This document shows, one piece after another, positions 25,996-29,580 of a DNA stretch of 32,000 nucleotides. The position numbers and the translations under genes are program-made. Under the pieces are notes generated by a model, which was given only the letters and a program-made list of their open reading frames with translations, had not been told where the DNA came from and did not search any database. The stretch spans positions 190,444 through 222,443 of the forward strand of contig PQXB01000001.1 of assembly GCA_003194425.1 (NCBI GenBank). The letters are read 5' to 3'. Each line of letters begins with the position of its first letter. The stretch's first letter is position 1. The DNA comes from Candidatus Methanophagaceae archaeon (lineage in GTDB: Archaea; Halobacteriota; Syntropharchaeia; Alkanophagales; Methanospirareceae).

Positions 25996-26559
25996 ATGGC
26001 AACGCAACAACACAAACAGCAGATTAGGGTTAGGATTCCTCTGGACAGAGTGGGCGCTCTAATCGGGCGTGACGGTGCTGTAAAGGGGATTTTAGAGAAA
26101 AAATCAGAGACGAAAATAGCAGTGGACAGCAACGAAGGAGAAGTGTGCGTAGAGGGCGTAGAAGGTGGAGACCCCGTAAAAGTGCTCGGAGCTGCAGAGG
26201 TGGTAAAGGCAGTAGGCAGGGGTTTTTCGCCCGAAAAGGCTCTTGCACTGCTTGACGATGATTTTGTCCTGCTCGACCTCGTCTCCCTTGCCCACCTCTC
26301 GCCGAAGACGCTGAAACGGGTGAAGGGGCGAGTAATCGGGCAGAACGGGCGAACGAGGCGGACGGTAGAGAACTTGGCGGGCGTTAAAATCTCGGTCTAC
26401 GGGAAGACCGTCGGCTTAATCGGACATTCGCACCAGATAAGGACTGCGCGTGAGGCTGTCGAAATGCTGATAAACGGCTCGCCGCACAGCGCGGTCTACT
26501 CCTTCTTGGAACGGCGGCGAGCGGAGGAGAGAGGGAAGGAGGGCGTTCGTGAGTCGTGA
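25996..26559 (+). CDS. KH-domain RNA-binding protein (aDim2p/Pno1-like, two KH modules)
   Basis: 187 aa with LIGRDGAVKG and VIGQNGRTRRTVE GxxG loops. It starts 2 nt after the rio1 stop. Confidence 0.8.
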   Translation: MATQQHKQQIRVRIPLDRVGALIGRDGAVKGILEKKSETKIAVDSNEGEVCVEGVEGGDPVKVLGAAEVVKAVGRGFSPEKALALLDDDFVLLDLVSLAHLSPKTLKRVKGRVIGQNGRTRRTVENLAGVKISVYGKTVGLIGHSHQIRTAREAVEMLINGSPHSAVYSFLERRRAEERGKEGVRES

Positions 26560-27251
26560 GGAACTTTGAGGAGGAACGGCGGCGGCTGGTGGAGCGTCTC
26601 AGGGCTCAAGGCGTCGGCAGTGAGGAAGTGTTGGCGGCGCTGGGGCGTGTTAAACGGCACTTTTTTGTCCCGCAGCACCTTGCAGAGCAGGCGTACGCCG
26701 ACTACCCGCTGCCGATTGGCGAGGGTCAGACGATTAGCGCACCGCACATTGTTGCGCTAATGTGCACTTATTTGGAGTTGCGGCGGGGGGAGAAGGTGCT
26801 TGAAATTGGCGCTGGCTCGGGCTACCACGCCGCGGTCGTTGCAGAACTCGTGGGCGAGGAGGGACAGGTGTACTCAGTGGAAAGGGTTGAGTGGTTGGCG
26901 GAATTTGCAAGGGCGAACCTGAGGCGGGCGGGCTACACGCAGGCGAGTGAGGGCGTGGTGCGGGGCGACGGAACTCTGGGGCTGCCCGAGCACGCGCCGT
27001 ACGACAAAATAAGCGTTGCCTGCGCTGCCCCTGATGTGCCACCGCCGTTGCTTGAGCAGTTGCGAGCAGGCGGGAGAATGGTCATTCCAATTGGGAAATT
27101 TATGCAGACGTTGTATCTGGTGAAGAAGGAGAAGGGAAAAGAGAAGGAGCGAGAGAGGCAGGAGGGCAGGGAAGAGGTAGTGCGGGAGAGGAAGTGCAGT
27201 GTGGTCTTTGTGCCTCTGGTGGGGCGGTACGGGTTCAGGGAAGAAGATTAA
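26556..27251 (+). CDS. pcm: Protein-L-isoaspartate O-methyltransferase
   Basis: The GTG start overlaps the upstream stop (GTGA). Motifs are QTISAPHIVA, VLEIGAGSGY and VFVPLVG. There is a K/E/R-rich insert before the last strand. Confidence 0.85.
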   Translation: MRNFEEERRRLVERLRAQGVGSEEVLAALGRVKRHFFVPQHLAEQAYADYPLPIGEGQTISAPHIVALMCTYLELRRGEKVLEIGAGSGYHAAVVAELVGEEGQVYSVERVEWLAEFARANLRRAGYTQASEGVVRGDGTLGLPEHAPYDKISVACAAPDVPPPLLEQLRAGGRMVIPIGKFMQTLYLVKKEKGKEKERERQEGREEVVRERKCSVVFVPLVGRYGFREED

Positions 27252-27257
27252 AAGAAT
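27244..27257 (+). repeat. Left copy of the 14-bp direct repeat AAGATTAAAAGAAT (contains the pcm stop codon)
   Basis: Read directly. It is identical to 29086-29099. Confidence 0.9.
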
Positions 27258-27426
27258 GCAGAAGAGATTATTTGAAGGAAATGTTGAGCAGGGGGAAGAC
27301 AGGAATAAGAGGGAGGGGTTTGTGATAAAGGATCGGGAAAAGAAGCAGAAATATTCTGCTGAAGAGATAAAAAATAAAGTTATCTCGGGAGATGCTTTCA
27401 AAGTTCTTAAGAAAATGAGTGAGTAA
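27256..27426 (+). pseudogene. N-terminal relic (56 codons) of an N4/N6-type DNA methyltransferase
   Basis: MQKRLFEGNVEQGEDRNKREGFVIKDREKKQKYSAEEIKNKVISGDAFKVLKKMSE*. The end resembles the usual pre-DPPY N-terminus of beta-class amino-methyltransferases (NKIi.GDa.evLKklp....DLi.tsPPY). The ORF stops before any catalytic or SAM motif. Confidence 0.4.
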
Positions 27427-27451
27427 AAATGTTCAAAAGGAGTTTTTGAAA

Positions 27452-28186
27452 ATGGTTACTAAAGTAGAAGCAATCAAAAAGGTTTTGGAGGATTTTAATG
27501 GCGTGGCAACTTGGGAGCAAATTTATGAGAATATTGAAAATTTTTATCCGTCAGCTAAAGTAAGTAGAGAATGGAAAGCGGGGATACGGGGGGTTTTATA
27601 CAGAGAACTCAAGAATAACAGAATTTTTAAAAAGATAGGTTTGGGAATTTATGCGTTAAAAGATTATGAGGAGGAAGAGAAGCCAAAGCCTGAGGAGAGG
27701 AGAAGAATGCACCCTTACATTGAAGGTATTTGCTTGGAGATCGGCAGGTTTGAAGGTTTTGAGACTTACACACCTGATAAATCCGCTGTATTCACGGACG
27801 GTATTTATTTAGGTCAAATCGCAACACTTTTAGAAATTCCTCAATTCACTTATCCAGAAATCGTAAATGTCGTGAGAAGAATAGATGTTTTGTGGTTCAA
27901 CAGCGTAGGCTTTAAGTTTCCCAAATACGCGATTGAGGTAGTAGATGCCGCTGGAACGCTTACCGACGCTCTGAACAGGTGCTTTCAATTGGTCTATTTT
28001 AACACTAACTTTACAATCGTGGGACCTGTGGAATACAAGGATAAATTTGAAGGGAAGATGAACAATGAACCTTACTTGAGGATTAGAGAGCGATTTGAGT
28101 TTAAGGACTACAAAATAGTTACGGATTTCTACGAATATTCAGTGAAAATGGACGAAGTTAGAAAAGGATTTTTTAGGGGTGTGTAA
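27452..28186 (+). CDS. wHTH (HARE-HTH/Mrr-N-like) + PD-(D/E)xK-like nuclease-fold protein, family unassigned
   Basis: ATG at 27452 with AAGGAG 9 nt upstream, giving 244 aa. Residues 5-70 (EAIKKVLEDFNGVATWEQIYENI...IFKKIGLGIYALKDY) look like a winged helix of the type fused to restriction nucleases. A C-terminal domain with H87, E91/E96, IDVLWF (D145) and AIEVVD (E162) follows the H...E...iDv.W...P..aiEV pattern of restriction-endonuclease-like folds. Confidence 0.55.
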   Translation: MVTKVEAIKKVLEDFNGVATWEQIYENIENFYPSAKVSREWKAGIRGVLYRELKNNRIFKKIGLGIYALKDYEEEEKPKPEERRRMHPYIEGICLEIGRFEGFETYTPDKSAVFTDGIYLGQIATLLEIPQFTYPEIVNVVRRIDVLWFNSVGFKFPKYAIEVVDAAGTLTDALNRCFQLVYFNTNFTIVGPVEYKDKFEGKMNNEPYLRIRERFEFKDYKIVTDFYEYSVKMDEVRKGFFRGV

Positions 28187-28216
28187 GCAAGCGGAAGCAA
28201 GCGGGAGGAAAATAAA

Positions 28217-29107
28217 ATGAACTATGAAAAGTTTTGTTCAATTATGAACGAGCAGATATTCAGGGAGGATAAGAAAAAACTGCTGAGAATAATTGCTTCA
28301 CAGGAGCTGTATTTTGGAGATTTCAGCCTGTTAAATTCGCAAATATTCCTGGGCAGTTGTTTGCAGCATCTCTTGCAGTCCCGCGAGATTAGATTTGGAG
28401 ATGCGATGGAAGAGTTGATTTCGGAGTTGCTGCGTGAGTGGGGATTTAAGGTGCTTCCAAAAATAATCCTGCCCGACGCCGCGAATAAAAGGAAGAGGCT
28501 TGAAATAGACCAATATTTTACGAAGTCCGAGGGGGGGGAGGTTTTTTATTTCATCGAGCAGAAGGTTAGAGACGACCACGATTCCACGAAGAAGAAAGGA
28601 CAACTGAACAATTTTGAGGCGAAGTTGGAGTTTCTTTACAAGAAGCACGGCGAGAGGCTTGAGGGAATTATGTATTTTGTCGACCCTGATTTGAGCAAGA
28701 ACAGGAATTTTTATGCGGAAGAACTGAAGAAGATGGAAGAGACTTACGGGCTAAAATTGGAGATTCTTTACGGCAAGGAGCTCTTTGAATATTTTGGGAG
28801 AGGGGAGTTGTGGGAGGCGATTTTGGAGTGGTTAGGGGAGTGGAAGGAGGGTTTGCCAGAACTGCCGGAGATAAACTTTGATACCAGTCCAAGAGAGAGT
28901 TTTGAAGAGATCAAAGATTTGGAGGTAAGGTATTGGAGAAGAATCTTAGGGAACGAGAGGCTGTGGGAAGGAGGAATAATGAAAGCGATTTTTAGAGAAG
29001 GTGAGACTTTGCGGAGTTTGTTAGAATTTTTCAGATTGGAGGAGCAGGATCTCGCACACGAACGGTTGGCTGAGTTGCTTACTCAAAGATTAAAAGAATT
29101 TTACTGA
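28217..29107 (+). CDS. PD-(D/E)xK restriction-endonuclease-like protein (D98-x15-E114-Q-K116) with a helical W/E-rich C-terminal domain
   Basis: ATG with GGGAGG 8 nt upstream, giving 296 aa. LEIDQYF...FYFIEQKVRDDHDSTKKKGQLNNFEAK is a canonical D...ExK core. From memory it is similar to some type II REase families (possibly TdeIII-like), but this is unverified. Confidence 0.6.
   Translation: MNYEKFCSIMNEQIFREDKKKLLRIIASQELYFGDFSLLNSQIFLGSCLQHLLQSREIRFGDAMEELISELLREWGFKVLPKIILPDAANKRKRLEIDQYFTKSEGGEVFYFIEQKVRDDHDSTKKKGQLNNFEAKLEFLYKKHGERLEGIMYFVDPDLSKNRNFYAEELKKMEETYGLKLEILYGKELFEYFGRGELWEAILEWLGEWKEGLPELPEINFDTSPRESFEEIKDLEVRYWRRILGNERLWEGGIMKAIFREGETLRSLLEFFRLEEQDLAHERLAELLTQRLKEFY
29086..29099 (+). 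repeat. Right copy of the 14-bp direct repeat AAGATTAAAAGAAT (inside the last codons of the 28217..29107 gene, 23 nt upstream of the psd-like ATG)
   Basis: Read directly. It is A/T-rich and may double as the TATA element of the downstream gene. Confidence 0.9.
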
Positions 29108-29121
29108 CACAAATAACACCA

Positions 29122-29580
29122 ATGACCGAGCAGATGCTTTCGCCTGCGAGCGGGAAGGTAACGAGGGTTGAAGAAGGAGGAGACCGAGAAGACCGAGGAG
29201 ACCGAACGATTTCTATTTTTATGCACCTCCACAACGTGCACGTCACTGCCGCACCGTTAGACGGAGTGGTGAAAAAAATAACACCCGAGCTGGGAGGTAC
29301 TTTCAAGCCCGCATTTCTCCGCAGCAGCGATTTCAACACGAGGAACACGATTGAACTCGCGACGAAATACGGGGAGGTGAAAGTAGTGCAAATAGCGGGA
29401 TTTTTTACGCGGAAGATCAAGTGCGAGGTGAAAGTAGGGCAGGAGGTCGCTAAAGGAGAGAGAATGGGTAAAATCTGCTTTGGCTCTCGCGTGGATGTGA
29501 GCGTTCCCGAGGGGCTTGAGATTTTGGTGCAGAAGGGGGAGAAGGTGCGGTGTAGGAGGACTGTTTTGGCGGAGCGGTAA
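29122..29580 (+). CDS. psd: Phosphatidylserine (archaetidylserine) decarboxylase-related protein, short form
   Basis: 152 aa with LSPASGKV, HNVHVTAAPLDGVV, VVQIAGFFTRKI and KICFGSRVDVSVP (the G-S self-cleavage-type motif). Confidence 0.65.
   Translation: MTEQMLSPASGKVTRVEEGGDREDRGDRTISIFMHLHNVHVTAAPLDGVVKKITPELGGTFKPAFLRSSDFNTRNTIELATKYGEVKVVQIAGFFTRKIKCEVKVGQEVAKGERMGKICFGSRVDVSVPEGLEILVQKGEKVRCRRTVLAER

Follow-up and report, generated by a model that had tools for sequence, protein, structure and literature searches.

What do two adjacent nuclease-like genes do in a genome when the DNA methylase gene beside them is reduced to a stub? The question is raised by a 32,000-nucleotide (nt) stretch of a Candidatus Methanophagaceae archaeon (GenBank assembly GCA_003194425.1, contig PQXB01000001.1, positions 190,444 to 222,443 of the forward strand), hereafter the window, by which we mean the whole stretch at its full length, numbered from its first letter. 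A first-pass annotation had proposed that two genes in it, here called A and B, form an undescribed, purpose-built defence module. Both open reading frames (ORFs) are intact on the plus strand and 30 nt apart, as it had described, and its interpretation is partly supported. We place the genes in a horizontally acquired cassette that, judged by its homologues, derives from a three-gene restriction–modification (R-M) operon with the order methylase (M), A and restriction endonuclease (R), B being the R gene. The explanation we favour, and to which we give about even probability, is that this methylase-deleted cassette carries in A an autonomous reader-plus-cutter resembling type IV restriction enzymes, next to a conventional B. 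The main features are as follows:

27238–29120, plus strand: inserted cassette (M remnant, A and R), 1,883 base pairs (bp), from alignment with the empty site
27256–27426, plus strand: remnant of a HinfI/CcrM-like N6-adenine DNA methyltransferase gene (PF01555 type), N-terminal ~55 codons only
27452–28186, plus strand: gene A, 244 amino acids (aa), winged helix plus PD-(D/E)xK-like nuclease, putative PF27126 'NmeDI_C' family
27452–27661, plus strand: predicted N-terminal winged helix of A, residues about 1–70 (AlphaFold, Foldseek)
27698–28186, plus strand: predicted C-terminal restriction-endonuclease-like domain of A, residues about 83–244 (AlphaFold, Foldseek)
28217–29107, plus strand: gene B, 296 aa, HpyAIV/HinfI-family type II restriction endonuclease by sequence (NF045832, PDLC03497)

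An insertion carrying a methylase remnant

The limits of the cassette are defined by a related Methanophagales genome (L162), which shares with the window the gene order eIF-1A, RIO1, KH, pcm and psd and lacks the cassette. In this empty site the pcm stop overlaps the psd start with no DNA between them, and the junction alignment shows host homology ending after GGGTTCA (27237) and restarting at AATGACC (29121), which identifies 27238–29120 as a 1,883-bp insertion. G+C content is ~0.40–0.42 across 27.0–29.0 kb versus ~0.53 in the flanks. The segment is horizontally acquired, in line with the earlier description of a mobile-looking island. The flanking genes and a repeat associated with the insert ends are:

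26556–27251, plus strand: host gene pcm (protein-L-isoaspartate O-methyltransferase), C terminus altered by the insertion (231 aa with the insertion versus 228 aa in the empty site)
27244–27257, no strand assigned: first of two copies of a 14-bp direct repeat (AAGATTAAAAGAAT), within the insert and 7 nt from its left end
29086–29099, no strand assigned: second copy of this repeat, within the final codons of B and 21 nt from the right end of the insert
29122–29580, plus strand: phosphatidylserine-decarboxylase-like host gene (psd), 152 aa, whose start overlaps the pcm stop in the empty site

Upstream of A, an ORF at 27199–27426, with a likely start at the ATG at 27256, ends in ...EEIKNKVISGDAFKVLKKMSE*. 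Aligned with methylases, it reads ...EEIKNKVISGDAFKVLKK and then stops where homologues run on ...DMVFIDPPY, breaking off before the DPPY motif. A tblastn search with the full-length M of locus L012 (315 aa) matched 27259–27423 to M residues 11–60 at 55% identity, and phmmer gave an E value of 2e-6. The ~30 nt before the A start, ribosome-binding site included, resemble the 3′ end of the intact L012 methylase gene, which points to an internal deletion of M in a former M-A-R operon. Insertion of A into M as a homing element was considered and rejected for the window because the sequence before A still resembles the natural M 3′ end; truncated M genes at several other loci, in which the original final codons and stop remain in frame, also speak against it. 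The rest of the window holds no other PF01555-like ORF. Only this N-terminal remnant adjoins the pair, and no functional GANTC N6-adenine methyltransferase lies next to B. As the first-pass annotation had recognised, the pair has no functional methylase partner, and no ATPase or helicase is present with the two genes.

No target-site duplication was found at the insert junctions in the alignment of window and empty site. By our own estimate, a 14-bp repeat at both ends is expected by chance at ~1e-4; we rejected it as a target-site duplication because the empty site places both copies inside the insert. Several cassettes at other loci are likewise bounded by direct repeats, of 12–26 nt and with a sequence that differs per locus (L076:4694 and 7347, L123:295 and 3004, L038:4441 and 6589). 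The repeat-bounded cassettes contain no integrase or transposase, and neither tRNA genes nor convincing terminators lie at the island borders. A scan for sigma-70-type promoters, which does not cover archaeal ones, found none recognisable in the cassette, and a PHROGs search returned no matches. The host itself is an ANME-1 (anaerobic methanotrophic archaea group 1) / Methanophagales archaeon, and variants of the cassette persist in several ANME-1 and Methanophagales assemblies.

Gene B

Gene B is, by its sequence, an ordinary member of the characterised HpyAIV/HinfI family of type II restriction endonucleases. Its match to the NCBIfam equivalog NF045832 ('HpyAIV family type II restriction enzyme') reaches 205.5 bits, above the curated cutoff of 160 (E 1e-60), with residues 1–266 covering profile positions 1–267 of 269. 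B also matches the PADLOC profile REase_II (PDLC03497) at E 5e-66 over residues 1–290. Its homologues are labelled PF09520 HinfI, and its NCBI name is 'restriction endonuclease'. The residues quoted in the first-pass annotation are as given there, and the PD-(D/E)xK core is intact (D98, E114-Q-K116, then RDDHDSTKKKGQ). Across 13 intact family members, 73 columns are invariant (D98, E114, Q115, K116, R118–S123 and 60 or more further columns), and B retains the consensus residue in all of them.

The C-terminal domain of B had been taken for a novel one. It belongs instead to the HpyAIV/HinfI family, in which the W/E-rich region is invariant (W199, W209, P214, P217–I219, F221, D222, R241 and N246 in the same 13 members). 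A sequence search of the PDB with B found no solved structure of the family, so this domain is structurally undescribed, yet not new. From family membership, the predicted cleavage site is GANTC. One of the nearest described systems is HpyAIV/HinfI R-M (R.HpyAIV HP1351, M.HpyAIV HP1352; GANTC), which B resembles in catalytic core and C-terminal domain. The window remnant corresponds to its PF01555 HinfI/CcrM-like methylase, and its cassette is likewise a compact mobile unit; the window differs in that the methylase is deleted and A lies between M and R.

Outside the cassette (window:1–32000 without 27238–29120), GANTC occurs at 0.46 of its expectation under a dinucleotide model. We rejected this avoidance as a sign of active B, since other N-centred palindromes are lower still (GGNCC 0.27, CTNAG 0.36, CCNGG 0.40) and a cassette-free relative gives 0.48 for GANTC. 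In the same sequence GCNGC and CGNCG are over-represented. The probable source of these departures among N-centred pentanucleotide palindromes, many of them strongly depleted, is bias of strand and codon usage, pressure from restriction, or the two together.

Gene A and its relatives

Gene A could also start at a GTG at 27419, giving 255 aa. Its AlphaFold model (predicted local distance difference test score 83.6) has an N-terminal winged helix with helices (H) and strands (E) at H4–14, E18–20, H21–30, H41–54, E59–63 and E66–69. The modelled C-terminal domain, with the order helix, strand, strand (D145), strand (E162), helix, strand, shows restriction endonuclease topology. Both domains had been anticipated. 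The winged helix is supported, and its assignment to the HARE-HTH type was not confirmed: scanned directly against Pfam, A had no HARE-HTH (PF05066) match at E ≤ 1, its only hit being a weak one to Forkhead (E 0.02), and PF05066 appears on two A homologues as a precomputed match marked faint. The quoted A residues were confirmed (H87, E91, E96, IDVLWF at 144–149 and AIEVVD at 160–165). In 131 sequences R51, H87, G92, D145, W148 and E162 are invariant, and E91, E96, D109, K/R142 and Q179 are nearly so across the family; H87/E91, D145 and E162 are candidate active-site residues.

Foldseek aligned the nuclease part weakly with AF2093 (2ph7, E 4e-3), YaeQ and Mus81, and the N terminus weakly with histone H1 globular domains, FoxP3 and the DpnI winged helix (67–70 columns, 18–19% identity, probability 0.5–0.66). 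PDB sequence searches with A and with its profile gave no useful match. The Pfam label PF27126 NmeDI_C is precomputed on most close homologues of A (53–82% identical), some marked weak; the window's exact protein has no precomputed PF27126 match on record. The direct Pfam scan covered a model set without PF27126.

The family is large and widely distributed. A search of 5.8 billion protein clusters found 317 homologues of A (E ≤ 1e-3), of which the nearest 120 share 51–82% identity with it, and a profile search among 1.84 billion representatives returned 592 cluster representatives. Hosts include Thermoplasmatota, Nanoarchaeota, Bacteroidota, Chloroflexota, WOR-3, Spirochaetes, Campylobacterota and others. 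A is under purifying selection, with a ratio of nonsynonymous to synonymous substitution rates (dN/dS) of 0.03–0.2. Among 50,697 phage records none contains a homologue, and the plasmid search yielded a single hit, distant and uninformative. A has the NCBI name 'hypothetical protein' (PXF51061.1, OYT65688.1), and in PADLOC-DB v2, where B is recognised, it has no match at E ≤ 1.

Both domains of A recur in other combinations. In 208–235-aa proteins (P0180, P0192, P0237), an HNH nuclease is attached to a winged helix nearly identical to that of A, and the nuclease domain of A follows an EVE (PUA-like) reader domain in P0157 and forms the C terminus of ~370–420-aa proteins with other N-terminal domains of ~220 aa. 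One further protein (P0190, 354 aa) joins a PF01555 methylase fragment (residues about 46–94) to a complete A-like protein (123–353), resembling the product of a methylase deletion running into the A start.

This architecture resembles that of known modification-dependent enzymes. Fusions of a winged helix to a nuclease, including the wH-HNH type (winged helix plus HNH), have been shown by experiment to be type IV enzymes dependent on N6-methyladenine (m6A), and they mostly lack a neighbouring methylase (PMC11037411). Like DpnI, HhiV4I, wH-HNH and wH-GIY-YIG (Helbrecht et al. 2024, PMC11037411), A combines one winged helix and one nuclease domain in a single polypeptide of modular parts. It shares their small size (~240 aa) and, mostly, the lack of a functional neighbouring methylase, and the wH-HNH build tested in that study is the winged helix of A joined to HNH in 208–235 aa. 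There are also differences. In A the order, winged helix then PD-(D/E)xK, is the reverse of that in DpnI; the Foldseek values above support homology of its winged helix to a DpnI-type reader only weakly; and the NmeDI_C nuclease type was not included in that study. A is typically nested in R-M operons and not stand-alone: M remnants adjoin it in about half of the loci surveyed below, and an intact M in about 10.

R.NmeDI of Neisseria meningitidis, which cuts on both sides of RCCGGY (PMC2095814), offers a second comparison. PF27126, the putative family of the A C terminus, is named after the C-terminal domain of this enzyme, implying a shared cleavage module; the relation is drawn from precomputed Pfam labels of A homologues. 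R.NmeDI differs from A in its length (351 aa), its N-terminal part and its C5 methylase partner.

Neighbourhoods of A across genomes

We collected A loci from species-representative genomes (74) and metagenomes (80), 134 of which were non-redundant, and classed the neighbours of A with profiles built from these loci. The survey was seeded from A, not from R, which introduces ascertainment bias. The arrangements were:

M (PF01555), A, R (HinfI-like): 33 of 134 loci
M (D12/Dam-like), A, R (AlwI-like): 29 of 134
R (TdeIII-like), A, M: 18 of 134
Methylase remnant or methylase only beside A: 17 of 134
Small ORF (c9) only beside A: 8 of 134
No R-M neighbour of the searched families: 29 of 134

Operons in which M, A and R are all intact, their stop and start codons overlapping, are rare (L012 and L150, where M keeps the DPPY and DPxxGxGT motifs). 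On comparison of these loci, the ancestral unit is a three-gene M-A-R operon and the window a methylase-deleted derivative, which contradicts the idea of a purpose-built two-gene module. The expectation that A and B co-occur holds in part: A is directly followed by a HinfI-family R in 33 loci, at least 8–10 of them with M truncated and R intact, but it is not dedicated to B, being found also beside AlwI-like or TdeIII-like enzymes, beside methylases only, or alone. The first-pass annotation would have been undone by B belonging to a characterised type II family and A having an unrelated function; the former was found, the latter was not. At some loci A is inserted by itself between conserved genes; its neighbours, where checked, are housekeeping genes (gatB-A-gpsA, rpoC-A, nadD...A...gyrB). 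A conventional restriction enzyme would hardly be tolerable among such genes without R-M partners.

A conserved ORF of 55–75 aa, c9 (consensus MDTIYLKIKIKK.D...ELREEGLFF..IA.AL.IDR..I.EIDE.NYK), lies directly upstream of A, often overlapping it, or in a few loci just downstream (L034:4814–5041, L065:4830–5000, L001:5825–6004, L021:5398–5595 and about 25 other loci). Its matches to helix-turn-helix (HTH) proteins are weak (HTH_19, E 7e-4; PDB HTH proteins, E about 1), and it may be a controller-like regulator of A. The c9 profile has no match in the window, where no small Xre-type HTH ORF was found upstream of the nuclease either. Some AlwI-type cassettes have the order controller, truncated M, A, R: at L024:4191–4502 and L022:1890–2201, the truncated Dam-like methylase gene has an Xre-type HTH gene (HTH_31/HTH_3, 103 aa) in front of it.

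In Streptococcus pneumoniae, a methylation-dependent nuclease cassette (DpnI) and a classical R-M cassette (DpnII) alternate at one locus. The Helicobacter pylori HpyAIV locus, which carries either M-R or c9-A, looks similar; it differs in that A sits within R-M gene remnants, with some loci keeping an intact M or R. In five strains of this species (HUP-B14, Arg-19RC1, KH0141, KH26 and PZ5056; L065–L071), an A cassette occupies this locus (for example, L065:4376–6190) and comprises a truncated M (Pfam positions 1–114), c9, an intact A and the last 135 aa of R. It adjoins a ctpA-like protease gene and is flanked by 16–25-nt direct repeats. The arrangement looks as if the GANTC R-M system had been exchanged, by allelic replacement, for the A cassette.

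State of the methylase and restriction genes beside A

R-M systems usually decay by losing the nuclease first, and orphan methylases survive. Around A this order is inverted, the methylase being lost and the nuclease often intact. In the HinfI- and AlwI-type loci the adjacent M is intact in 7, truncated in about 43 and absent in 5. In the loci of these two types that could be evaluated, the combined states were:

HinfI-type: M and R intact, 2; M intact and R truncated, 4; M truncated and R intact, 8 (10 if L164 and L166 are added); both truncated, 9
AlwI-type: M and R intact, 0; M intact and R truncated, 1; M truncated and R intact, 18; both truncated, 7

We rejected the idea that M tends to be intact where R is not, and vice versa, as the HinfI-type counts (2, 4, 8, 9) fit independence. 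Mutated motifs in full-length M genes beside A, as a sign of conflict between the two, were likewise rejected, since nearly all such genes keep DPPY and DPxxGxGT.

The surviving piece of M is the end distal to A: upstream M genes leave N-terminal remnants ending at Pfam positions 93–184, and downstream ones lack the 5′ part. The HinfI-type loci by themselves show at least 14 distinct truncation points, and several deletions are in frame, with the natural last codons and stop kept beside the A start. Truncated R genes keep the distal (C-terminal) part, a few with a frameshifted 5′ part (L105, L108). Among loci with the same M truncation, R has a dN/dS of 0.05–0.16. Truncated M genes have values of 0.04–0.2, which is not proof of function because cassettes recombine with intact alleles.

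M ORFs sharing a truncation have been kept open (dN/dS 0.04–0.16) though without half of the catalytic motifs, in AlwI-type (L024:4499–4996, L125, L135, L031, L023) and HinfI-type loci (L036:4500–4997, L048:4521–4997). Such stubs may be functional, in DNA recognition or translational coupling, or may be refreshed by recombination with intact alleles. Two Bacteroidales carry the same cassette of truncated M, A and AlwI-like R at unrelated positions (L027:4590–7310 and L143:2095–4993). The copies are 91–100% identical up to mid-R and 57–80% identical in the 3′ half of R, a pattern suggesting that recombination has exchanged part of the restriction gene.

Weighing the explanations

In the explanation we favour, the window cassette derives from a HinfI/HpyAIV-type M-A-R operon in which an internal deletion left ~55 M codons. 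B would presumably cut unmethylated GANTC and, if active, would oblige the host to have a source of GANTC protection elsewhere in its genome. A would be a self-contained nuclease built like a modification-dependent (type IV) enzyme, its winged helix reading DNA or a DNA modification and its NmeDI-type PD-(D/E)xK domain cutting. We infer that A cuts DNA, that cutting depends on modification and that it is independent of B; A would ride nested in type II R-M cassettes, acting beside R and not through it. Needing no methylase of its own, it could survive alone or beside broken methylase genes, as is observed. The explanation would also account for the modular relatives of A and for how strongly A is conserved.

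Several findings weigh against this explanation. Intact M and A coexist in about 10 loci, with a DPPY-type motif in all but L016, whose M has no such match. If A read the m6A of its neighbour, loci of this kind (L012, L021, L034, L043, L051, L150, L045/L046) would be suicidal, so the mark cannot simply be the neighbour's. Autonomy gives A no reason to sit between M and R, as it does at every locus where both are recognisable. Nor does it account for the translational coupling of A and R, whose stop and start overlap by 4 to 11 nt (often as ATGA) or lie 3–30 nt apart, across two unrelated endonuclease families. An intact R with a dead M, present in 26 of 62 HinfI- and AlwI-type loci, is unexpected for classical R-M and suggests that A may matter for tolerating R. 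A itself lacks the canonical lysine, with none at E+2, as had been pointed out, and in one sub-clade D165 is replaced by H; no association of this residue with the state of M was established. Finally, the weak structural and PDB sequence matches include no characterised close relative.

The coupling and the surviving R genes would be explained more directly if A and R formed a methylase-free system in which A replaces M in sparing the host or steering R to foreign DNA, a possibility that we regard as the main rival, though an unlikely one. In variants of this idea, A restrains R until infection, as in toxin–antitoxin or abortive-infection systems, or A senses modified invader DNA and R handles the unmodified, which is close to the sensor-plus-effector pair first proposed. 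It draws support from the loci with only M truncated (8 or 10 HinfI-type and 18 AlwI-type, with both genes intact at only 2), from the low dN/dS of R in these loci and from the appearance of M-truncated cassettes at unrelated positions (L027, L143) and as a discrete insertion in the window. In-frame M deletions that keep a natural stop by the A start further suggest selection for translation of A and R. However, a single A family (50–85% identical) would then control three unrelated endonuclease families, and A is stable without any endonuclease (54 loci) or with R remnants only. M and R states are statistically independent in HinfI-type loci, the low dN/dS may come from recombination with intact alleles, as in the L027/L143 mosaic, and a methylase elsewhere in the genome could protect the host. 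The invariant catalytic-type residues of A argue for an enzyme and not an inhibitor. It is also rather unlikely that methylase-less A-R cassettes, some with a conserved M stub, are a stable mobile two-nuclease defence unit in which M deletions were selected and do not represent decay. If they were, R would cut unmodified invaders and A would cut self-methylating ones (phages with Dam- or CcrM-type methylases) or spare the host from R, and a type II enzyme would have been kept without its cognate methyltransferase.

Two further accounts were weighed. A might be a conventional R-M partner (a second endonuclease or nicking subunit, sometimes controlled by c9) or a homing-type nuclease mobilising the cassette, which we consider improbable. 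M-(c9)-A units with no other endonuclease do resemble methylase–controller–restriction systems (L034, L043, L051), the A domain is named after part of a type II enzyme, and cassettes insert as units without an integrase, sometimes with 12–26-nt direct repeat flanks, as A does singly between conserved genes. However, most A genes have no intact methylase nearby, which ill suits a methylation-sensitive endonuclease, and HinfI-family enzymes work without a partner. As for homing, the insertion sites are diverse, with no single homing site, and A is absent from the phage records and nearly absent from plasmids. About equally improbable is the account that the locus is a functionless, decaying remainder of a classical R-M cassette, with M gone and A and B to follow. 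M is indeed a stub, M and R are often both truncated (9 HinfI-type loci, that of H. pylori HpyAIV included) and the sigma-70-type scan, which does not cover archaeal promoters, recognised none in the cassette. Against this, A and B are full-length, B matches all 73 invariant family columns and A all its invariant positions, cassette variants persist across several ANME-1 and Methanophagales assemblies, and A is under strong purifying selection family-wide.

B alone is of little import, being an already annotatable restriction enzyme. A matters as a strongly conserved, uncharacterised family that numbers hundreds of proteins and has passed between Archaea and many bacterial phyla; it is nested in operons of three unrelated R-M families and unrecognised by PADLOC and NCBIfam. 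If A is modification-dependent, as in the explanation we favour, it would represent a new winged-helix/NmeDI-type class of type IV restriction; if it instead lets a type II nuclease live without a methylase, it would represent a new principle of self-protection.

Other features of the window genome

Housekeeping proteins of the window genome contain short tandem or low-complexity peptide inserts. These comprise three copies of TKRGSEENSF in the RIO kinase (window:24767–25993), a repeated NGDPTR in a GTPase (window:23695–24474, minus strand) and G/E/R-rich runs in the prolyl-tRNA synthetase ProRS (window:30797–31996, minus strand).

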